From: a virus
Lineage: Duplodnaviria > Heunggongvirae > Uroviricota > Caudoviricetes
Virus record (IMG/VR): IMGVR_UViG_2681813225_000011
Direction: 5' to 3' (one strand)
DNA length: 4,519 nt
The position numbers were made by a program, and so were the translations under genes. The stretch's first letter is position 1; each line of letters begins with the position of its first letter. The notes under the pieces were generated by a model. That model ran no database searches. It was not told the origin of the DNA and worked only from the letters and a program-made list of their open reading frames with translations. Below are positions 347-761 of the stretch, in pieces.

Positions 347-372
347 AAAAAAAAGGCCCGCAAAAGCGAGCC
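347..372 (-). terminator. Rho-independent terminator immediately downstream of the tRNA-like element
   Basis: Minus strand reads GGCTCGC-tttt-GCGGGCC (7-bp stem with one G-U pair) followed by eight U (forward A-run 347-354). It lies about 15 nt beyond the tRNA-like 3' end. Confidence 0.55.
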
Positions 373-386
373 AGGGAAAATAAGTG

Positions 387-462
387 TGGCGCGTTGTACT
401 GGATTCGAACCAGCGACCTGGCGATTATGCGTCGCTCGCTCTCACCACTGAGCTAAAGGGCC
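387..462 (-). tRNA. tRNA(CAU)-like element resembling tRNA-Ile2/ileZ class; probable pseudo-tRNA or remnant
   Basis: Minus-strand 76-nt sequence GGCCCTT-TA-GCTCAGTGGTGAGAGC-G-AGCGA-CGCATAA-TCGCC-AGGTC-GCTGG-TTCGAAT-CCAGT-ACAACGC-G-CCA. D arm, T arm (TTCGAAT loop), anticodon CAT and 3' CCA are all recognisable. The acceptor strands GGCCCTT and ACAACGC pair at only 2 of 7 positions, position 33 is G instead of the conserved U, and 27-43 is an A-C mismatch. Confidence 0.6.
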
Positions 463-499
463 GGGAGCAGAATAATAACGGTCCGTAATTAATTCCGCA

Positions 500-525
500 A
501 TAAAAAACCCGCTCAATGGCGGGTT
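500..525 (-). terminator. Rho-independent terminator between the ORF6N gene and the tRNA-like element
   Basis: Stem aacccgc (506-512) pairs with gcgggtt (519-525), loop tcaatg. On the minus strand the hairpin is followed by UUUUUUAUU (forward A-run 500-507). Confidence 0.55.
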
Positions 526-761
526 CTGGTAAAGTTCATGCGCTTGGTTCGCCTCGCGATACAGCTTTGCGAAGCGTACCGGAATTGAAGCAGTTTATGT
601 GCAAAAATGCAAGAACTTTTTTAAAGCTGCATCAACCTTTCCACCAGTTTATCTCTGCGAACAACAAACCAACCATTGGCTCTCGCCAGTTCCAGCCATG
701 ACTCAAGGGAAATAACAATATCATCATCCCGTAACTGAATTGTGGAAACAGTGACACCACC

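Follow-up and report, generated by a model that had tools for sequence, protein, structure and literature searches.

Genes and features of the locus

The DNA analysed here (the window, 4,519 nt) carries on its minus strand the late-regulatory region of a lambdoid prophage of Shiga-toxigenic-type Escherichia coli, and the best complete-genome matches cover 98% of it at 99.2% identity. Read along the minus strand, the gene order is hok/sok, a Doc-family toxin gene, the DUF1367 (NinB-like) and DUF1364 genes and a Q-like DUF1133 gene (1449–2003). After Q come isrK, c4-a1b1 and C4 motifs, an ORF with an ORF6N domain, a terminator, a tRNA-like element, a second terminator and the small RNA STnc100; in related genomes (L001) a DUF6645 gene, holin and lysozyme come next downstream. 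The features between Q and STnc100 are as follows.

1429–1377, minus strand: c4-a1b1 motif
1416–1340, minus strand: isrK motif, with a terminator at 1361–1345
1314–1231, minus strand: C4 antisense RNA motif
762–1178, minus strand: ORF6N-domain ORF
499–527, minus strand: upstream intrinsic-terminator-like hairpin, stem 527–519/512–504 and a T-run; fold −13.1 kcal/mol, z = −2.6
472–500, minus strand: candidate promoter of the tRNA cassette, TTGCGG (500–495), a 17-nt spacer and TATTAT (477–472)
387–462, minus strand: 76-nt element, very probably a chimeric pseudo-tRNA ileZ'-'argO (sequence, Rfam core match, four-way alignment)
372–347, minus strand: downstream intrinsic terminator, stem 372–355 and T8 354–347 (terminator scan; fold −13.8 kcal/mol, z = −4.3)

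The motifs between 1231 and 1452, taken with the ORF6N ORF, resemble an antisense-controlled antirepressor module of the P1 immI or Gifsy-1 isrK kind, placed in the late leader. A promoter-like TTGACT-18-TATATT (1452–1423, minus strand) follows immediately after the Q-like gene. Further upstream, the Doc-family (death-on-curing) toxin ORF (3351–3845, minus strand) is preceded by a small ORF (3855–4034), which may encode its antitoxin. The hok/sok system is of the hokD type, with hok at 4246–4401 (minus strand) and a sok match at 4399–4519 that runs off the end of the window. A weak rsmX/istR-like Rfam match at 3312–3402 falls below the gathering score.

Read directly from the minus strand, window positions 387–462 give GGCCCTTTAGCTCAGTGGTGAGAGCGAGCGACGCATAATCGCCAGGTCGCTGGTTCGAATCCAGTACAACGCGCCA. 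A preliminary description of this DNA, made from the letters, had recognized here a 76-nt element with D and T arms, a CAU anticodon and a 3' CCA, and both the sequence and a partial Rfam match bear this out. The anticodon occupies element positions 34–36 (window 429–427), and the element ends in GCCA (window 390–387, CCA at 389–387), with a discriminator G and canonical spacing. The D arm, the anticodon arm and the T arm with its GTTCGAATC-type T loop are all present, and the Rfam posterior probabilities are all high. A27-C43 is the sole non-standard pair in these inner arms, and intact ileZ shares it. In local alignment the Rfam tRNA model RF00005 recognizes the three arms as tRNA-like and leaves the acceptor stem unaligned: the match covers window 397–456, that is model positions 7–64 of 71 only, at 37.3 bits (gathering score 29; E = 2e-5 for the window and 1e-6 for the region). 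The intact phage genes ileZ, argN and argO score 72.5, 55.9 and 70.1 bits, respectively, each over the full model.

The element lacks the 7-bp acceptor stem of a functional bacterial tRNA. Its acceptor strands GGCCCUU (5') and ACAACGC (3'), already described as unable to pair, form two of seven standard pairs, G1-C72 and U7-A66 only. It also lacks the U33 of a functional bacterial tRNA, a base near-invariant in tRNAs; position 33 is G (window 430), as had been noted. ARAGORN finds no tRNA anywhere in the window or in eight other loci with the same element, and calls all three of ileZ, argN and argO in each of three intact loci (L002, L055, L062). Neither ARAGORN nor Rfam returns the normal high-scoring tRNA that was named as evidence against the unpaired stem. 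The NCBI PGAP annotation, however, labels the element as an ordinary tRNA-Met of 71 nt (window 387–457, L001 5088–5158), without a pseudogene flag. That call, from a pipeline whose tRNA calling is based on tRNAscan-SE, starts only at the sixth base of the 5' acceptor strand.

Folded as cloverleaves, ileZ reaches −29.7 kcal/mol and argO −22.0, whereas the element forced into this shape reaches −8.1. The fold of lowest energy for the element (−24.6) has another shape than the cloverleaf, and shuffled sequences fold about as well (z = −0.97). A substitute acceptor partner was sought in the flanks by reading and by folding of 345–470, and none was found; the complements GCGTTGT and AAGGGCC are absent from both flanks.

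The intact D, anticodon and T arms, the CCA and the PGAP label might suggest an unconventional tRNA, able to function with its acceptor stem unpaired or by pairing with its flanks. We give this reading practically no credence: with two of seven acceptor pairs, no complement in the flanks, G33 in place of the near-invariant U33 and rejection by ARAGORN in every context tested, the element would also lack, on general knowledge of tRNA biology, the acceptor identity elements for TilS and IleRS and the helix for RNase P. Judged from this structure, the element almost certainly cannot act as a tRNA.

Terminators had been proposed directly on both sides of the element, and folding confirms them at 499–527 and 347–372. 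The Rfam Trp_leader terminator segment partly aligns at the upstream hairpin, which ends the ORF6N transcription unit. A consensus terminator scan did not report this hairpin (499–527), apparently because an A-U/G-U extension of the stem uses part of the T-run, as read from the sequence. The candidate promoter lies between this hairpin and the element, its TATTAT ending 9 nt before tRNA position 1. A consensus promoter scan reports none upstream of the element, the candidate being below threshold with a −35 that matches at three of six positions. Intact ileZ in L002 has TTGCAG-17-TATTAT upstream, with the same spacing and the same −10 hexamer, and the 48 nt upstream are identical across 84 IMG/VR loci that carry the ileZ 5' part. 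Since the promoter-like sequence and the downstream terminator are both intact, a transcript is probably still made.

Parentage of the element

In lambdoid and Stx phages such as 933W and Stx2a_1447, a cassette of ileZ, argN and argO occupies the same slot, downstream of Q and upstream of stx or the DUF6645 gene. Stx2a_1447 (L002; gene names from AP012536) carries three tandem tRNAs with anticodons CAU, UCG and UCU, as called by ARAGORN. A 301-nt query around the element matched Stx phages in two pieces spread over 310–330 bp, under ileZ, argN and argO. A second comparator, the IMG/VR locus L055, has an intact ileZ-argN-argO cluster and the same flanks as the window. A four-way alignment of ileZ, argN, argO and the element, with a comparison of the flanks, divides the element and its downstream flank as follows.

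414–462, minus strand: unambiguous ileZ part, element positions 1–49, identical to ileZ except T33G at window 430
407–413, minus strand: crossover interval CTGGTTC, element positions 50–56, common to ileZ and argO
387–406, minus strand: unambiguous argO part, element positions 57–76, identical to argO of Stx2a_1447 and L055
343–386, minus strand: native argO 3' flank including the intrinsic terminator, matching what follows argO in L055 exactly over 31 nt and in L002 almost exactly

The ileZ part comprises the 5' acceptor strand, the D arm, the anticodon arm, the variable loop and the first T-stem base. CTGGTTC is the 5' strand of the T stem with the first three T-loop bases, and lies between G49, which is specific to ileZ, and G57, which is specific to argO; the breakpoint that the preliminary description proposed to find by alignment with Stx-phage ileZ lies within it. 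The remaining T loop, the 3' strand of the T stem, ACAACGC, the discriminator G and the CCA belong to argO. Thus, positions 1–56 are ileZ apart from T33G, and positions 50–76 (27 nt) are argO exactly. Identity with ileZ does not extend over the full length but stops at position 56, and AAGGGCC, the partner of GGCCCTT, is replaced by ACAACGC. The sequence spanning the junction is GGTCGCTGGTTCGAATCCAGTACAACGC.

The relation to the intact cluster is that of a deletion. Window and L055 are identical from −51 to +107 except for an exact 174-bp gap and T33G, the latter being the only mismatch with L055 ileZ across −51 to +56; measured on L002, whose cluster is 252 bp long, the gap is 176 bp. The two acceptor strands cannot pair because the 5' strand of ileZ faces the 3' strand of another gene, argO, whose own partner, GCGTTGT, has been deleted. 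The element is therefore very probably a non-functional hybrid tRNA pseudogene that arose by an ileZ-argO deletion within an ileZ-argN-argO cassette, its non-functional status being the most likely one to judge from the structure. It shares with the cassette an upstream leader and promoter-like region, the leader being homologous to that of ileZ in L002 and L055. In contrast to the cassette, it is a single gene-length remnant that has lost argN and, of ileZ and argO, the inner halves; its acceptor strands are mismatched, G33 stands for T33, and stx is adjacent in none of 22 loci.

These results support the earlier placement of the element with the ileZ-like tRNAs downstream of Q in lambdoid and Stx phages, through the ileZ alignment and the homologous leader. 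They support equally the proposal that the acceptor mismatch reflects recombination with a foreign 3' end rather than scattered decay, the 3' part being identical to argO. A 3' replacement of 10–12 nt had been suggested; the replacement stands, its extent does not, since positions 57–76 are foreign, the crossover lies at 50–56 and the argO sequence continues into the flank and terminator. G33, which had been counted in the pattern taken to suggest this replacement, is a separate T33G substitution found only on the hybrid; it fits decay after inactivation.

Hybrids between tandem tRNA genes are already known, and the unequal recombination of the E. coli tyrT-tyrV tandem is reportedly their classical example. 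As in such hybrids, each side of the element matches one of two neighbouring parents, the crossover lies in shared sequence, the outer flanks are collinear and the intervening DNA is lost. Unlike the tyrT-tyrV type, the parents belong to two isoacceptor families, Ile2 and Arg, whose acceptor stems are unrelated, so that the product would be dead rather than a working recombinant. A further difference from unequal tandem recombination is that no reciprocal duplication product, recognizable by an argO'-'ileZ junction, occurs in 5,426 E. coli genomes or in IMG/VR.

The preliminary description gave recombination at the tRNA 3' end as an example, and an attachment-site scar comes close to this. A tyrosine integrase acting at the T-loop or 3' end would then have swapped the 3' end of ileZ for a sequence brought by an integrating element. 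The crossover does coincide with 7 nt of identity in the T stem and T loop, as is usual in size and position for integrase overlap regions, and attachment-site tRNA pseudogenes and fragments likewise have a 3' portion of other origin than the 5' portion. However, the replacing sequence with its flank is exactly argO, found two genes downstream in the intact cassette, so that the donor is a neighbouring gene of the same cluster. Moreover, the hybrid lies inside the late region, between Q and the DUF6645 and lysis genes, and not where a prophage ends; the L001 annotation has no integrase in the 5 kb to either side; and no matching repeat of the displaced 3' end was found in 5,426 E. coli genomes or in IMG/VR. 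We consider an attachment-site scar highly improbable; the exchange is better described as an internal deletion of 174–176 bp. An internal deletion within the cluster leaves no displaced cognate 3' fragment to be expected elsewhere in the genome, where it was to be looked for, and the reciprocal argO'-'ileZ junction is absent from those genomes and from IMG/VR.

The history that we propose starts from an ancestral lambdoid prophage, which would have carried ileZ (tRNA-Ile2, CAU), argN (tRNA-Arg, UCG) and argO (tRNA-Arg, UCU) in tandem downstream of Q. A deletion of 174 bp (176 bp relative to some cluster variants) would have fused ileZ to argO within their near-identical T arms, taking out the 3' end of ileZ, the whole of argN and the 5' part of argO; replication slippage or another recombination at short homology is the probable mechanism. 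The acceptor helix is required for RNase P cleavage and holds identity elements for TilS and the synthetases. Without it, what is known of tRNA biology suggests that the transcript would be an improper substrate for RNase P, TilS and the aminoacyl-tRNA synthetase. T33G would have come later, removing the near-universal U33. Four hybrid-carrying genomes listed hold five to eight ileZ-like places each, and with several other ileZ-like copies in the host genome the loss of the cassette should cost little.

Distribution and origin of the hybrid

We searched for the hybrid with a 43-nt junction query constructed so that only the hybrid can seed a 28-mer word. Of 5,426 complete E. coli genomes, 162 have the junction at full length; among the matches listed, all junction-bearing genomes are of STEC type, with serotypes that include O157:H7, O145:H28, O121:H19, O111:H8 and O45:H2. 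A further 29 E. coli genomes matched by the query carry an ileZ variant with a TTCGAAT T-loop and no hybrid. The perfect 76-mer, G33 included, is present in 160 complete E. coli genomes. The junction was also found in 22 IMG/VR contigs, all 22 of them with G33, and in none of 50,697 INPHARED phage records; an exact-sequence scan of the GTDB species representatives gave none either. Two IMG/VR copies (L006, L015) have in addition G17A, in the conserved GG of the D loop, which fits continuing pseudogene decay.

Tandem repeats can collapse in short-read assemblies, and similar tRNA genes in tandem might in this way yield a false hybrid. The probability of such an artefact is negligible: 162 genomes finished independently of one another and 22 IMG/VR contigs share the junction with its linked G33, intact clusters at other places in those genomes are assembled correctly, and a collapse cannot create G33.

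The 22 IMG/VR loci place the same hybrid behind at least four upstream modules: Q (DUF1133) with ORF6N variants of 100%, 82% and 70% amino acid identity, Q directly, a DNA methylase gene in a context resembling Stx2 phages, and one other. Behind the hybrid there are two downstream variants, with the DUF6645 gene about 480 nt downstream, and stx is next to it in none of the 22 loci examined. As the junction always comes with G33 and yet stands in at least four upstream contexts, it would have a single origin followed by recombinational spread. The comparison of these sequences points to one deletion, one later T33G and then spread by recombination among paralogous prophages as the simplest reading, homologous recombination having presumably carried a single haplotype from one to another of the many paralogous lambdoid prophages in STEC strains.

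Two other orders of events were considered. Independent deletions that recurred are unsupported, since there is no hybrid with T33 in IMG/VR and no intact ileZ with G33. The latter absence, which extends over 7,490 ileZ-like places in 3,053 genomes and over IMG/VR, also leaves unsupported a G33 that predates the deletion on a surviving intact lineage.

The perfect conservation of the 76-mer over 160 genomes and several contexts could be due to selection; recent spread explains it equally well. This bears on whether the hybrid has been exapted as a small RNA, transcribed from the cassette promoter to the argO terminator as a tRNA-like RNA of about 115–125 nt with a regulatory or decoy role. The promoter-like TTGCGG-17-TATTAT and the strong terminator are intact, the identical sequence occurs in 160 genomes and at least four contexts, and prophage small RNAs (STnc100, isrK, C4) abound nearby. 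However, the predicted primary transcript (345–470) folds no better than shuffled sequences (z = −0.90), covariation is absent because all copies are identical, and the further damaging changes, G33 and in two copies G17A, have the appearance of decay. A recent single origin with prophage recombination explains the distribution without selection, and the hybrid is absent from all 50,697 phage records. Exaptation as a small RNA thus appears very unlikely. So does its more specific form, in which a stable acceptor-less RNA was co-opted, for instance to act by base pairing or as a decoy or sponge of a tRNA-binding enzyme such as RNase P or TilS, with selection aiding its spread.

We therefore retain the non-functional ileZ-argO hybrid; it is an ordinary deletion scar and involves no new mechanism. 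Our literature search, incomplete in its coverage, on ileZ, argN and argO and on tRNAs upstream of stx found no description of an ileZ-argO hybrid. A preprint on the STnc100/Pas small RNAs reports tRNA hits near these RNAs and does not mention an ileZ-argO chimera.

The tRNA-Met label is misleading in practice, since at least 160 finished STEC genomes carry the element and RefSeq applies the label to all 51 full-length junction matches listed. Consequently, counts of prophage tRNAs that read rare codons (AUA, AGA and CGA) in STEC are slightly inflated by the mislabelled chimera. As a clean marker of single origin, the junction together with G33 can be used to trace recombination between paralogous lambdoid prophages across O157:H7, O145:H28, O121:H19, O111:H8, O45:H2 and other lineages. 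The hybrid also illustrates how redundant phage tRNA cassettes decay.

Cassette variants and the downstream end of the window

The ileZ-argN-argO cassette is highly polymorphic in prophages, as seen in the IMG/VR loci that carry a leader of the window type (L025–L106). Its commonest forms there have a degenerate, lengthened argN (…GAAGAGCAGACGACACGATAACAGGGTTGTTGGTGCGGGGGCGGG…), sometimes with a poly-G expansion, and some argO copies have A69G and a CCA changed to CTA. L027 is without the spacer between argN and argO, and the cassettes of L033 and L106 end after the 5' half of argN and run straight into the STnc100 region.

STnc100 itself is full-length in the window (120–310, minus strand, 135.7 bits, E = 7e-31). 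It comes immediately after the tRNA remnant with its terminator; in Stx phages this place, behind the tRNA cassette and ahead of the DUF6645 gene, is taken by stxAB. Two convergent terminator-like hairpins mark its 3' end, at 91–112 on the plus strand and 131–150 on the minus strand. The plus-strand hairpin (GCCCGCG…CGCGGGC, then T7) lies in sequence outside the L001-type prophage.

Homology with the L001-type prophage stops at base 108, and bases 1–34 of the window are an end of IS2. Window 1–125 adjoins IS2 in five complete genomes only. The window is thus a mosaic, present as a whole in no complete genome searched. In L109, the one of these five that was examined, window 1–125 lies beside an intact ileZ-argN-argO cluster.
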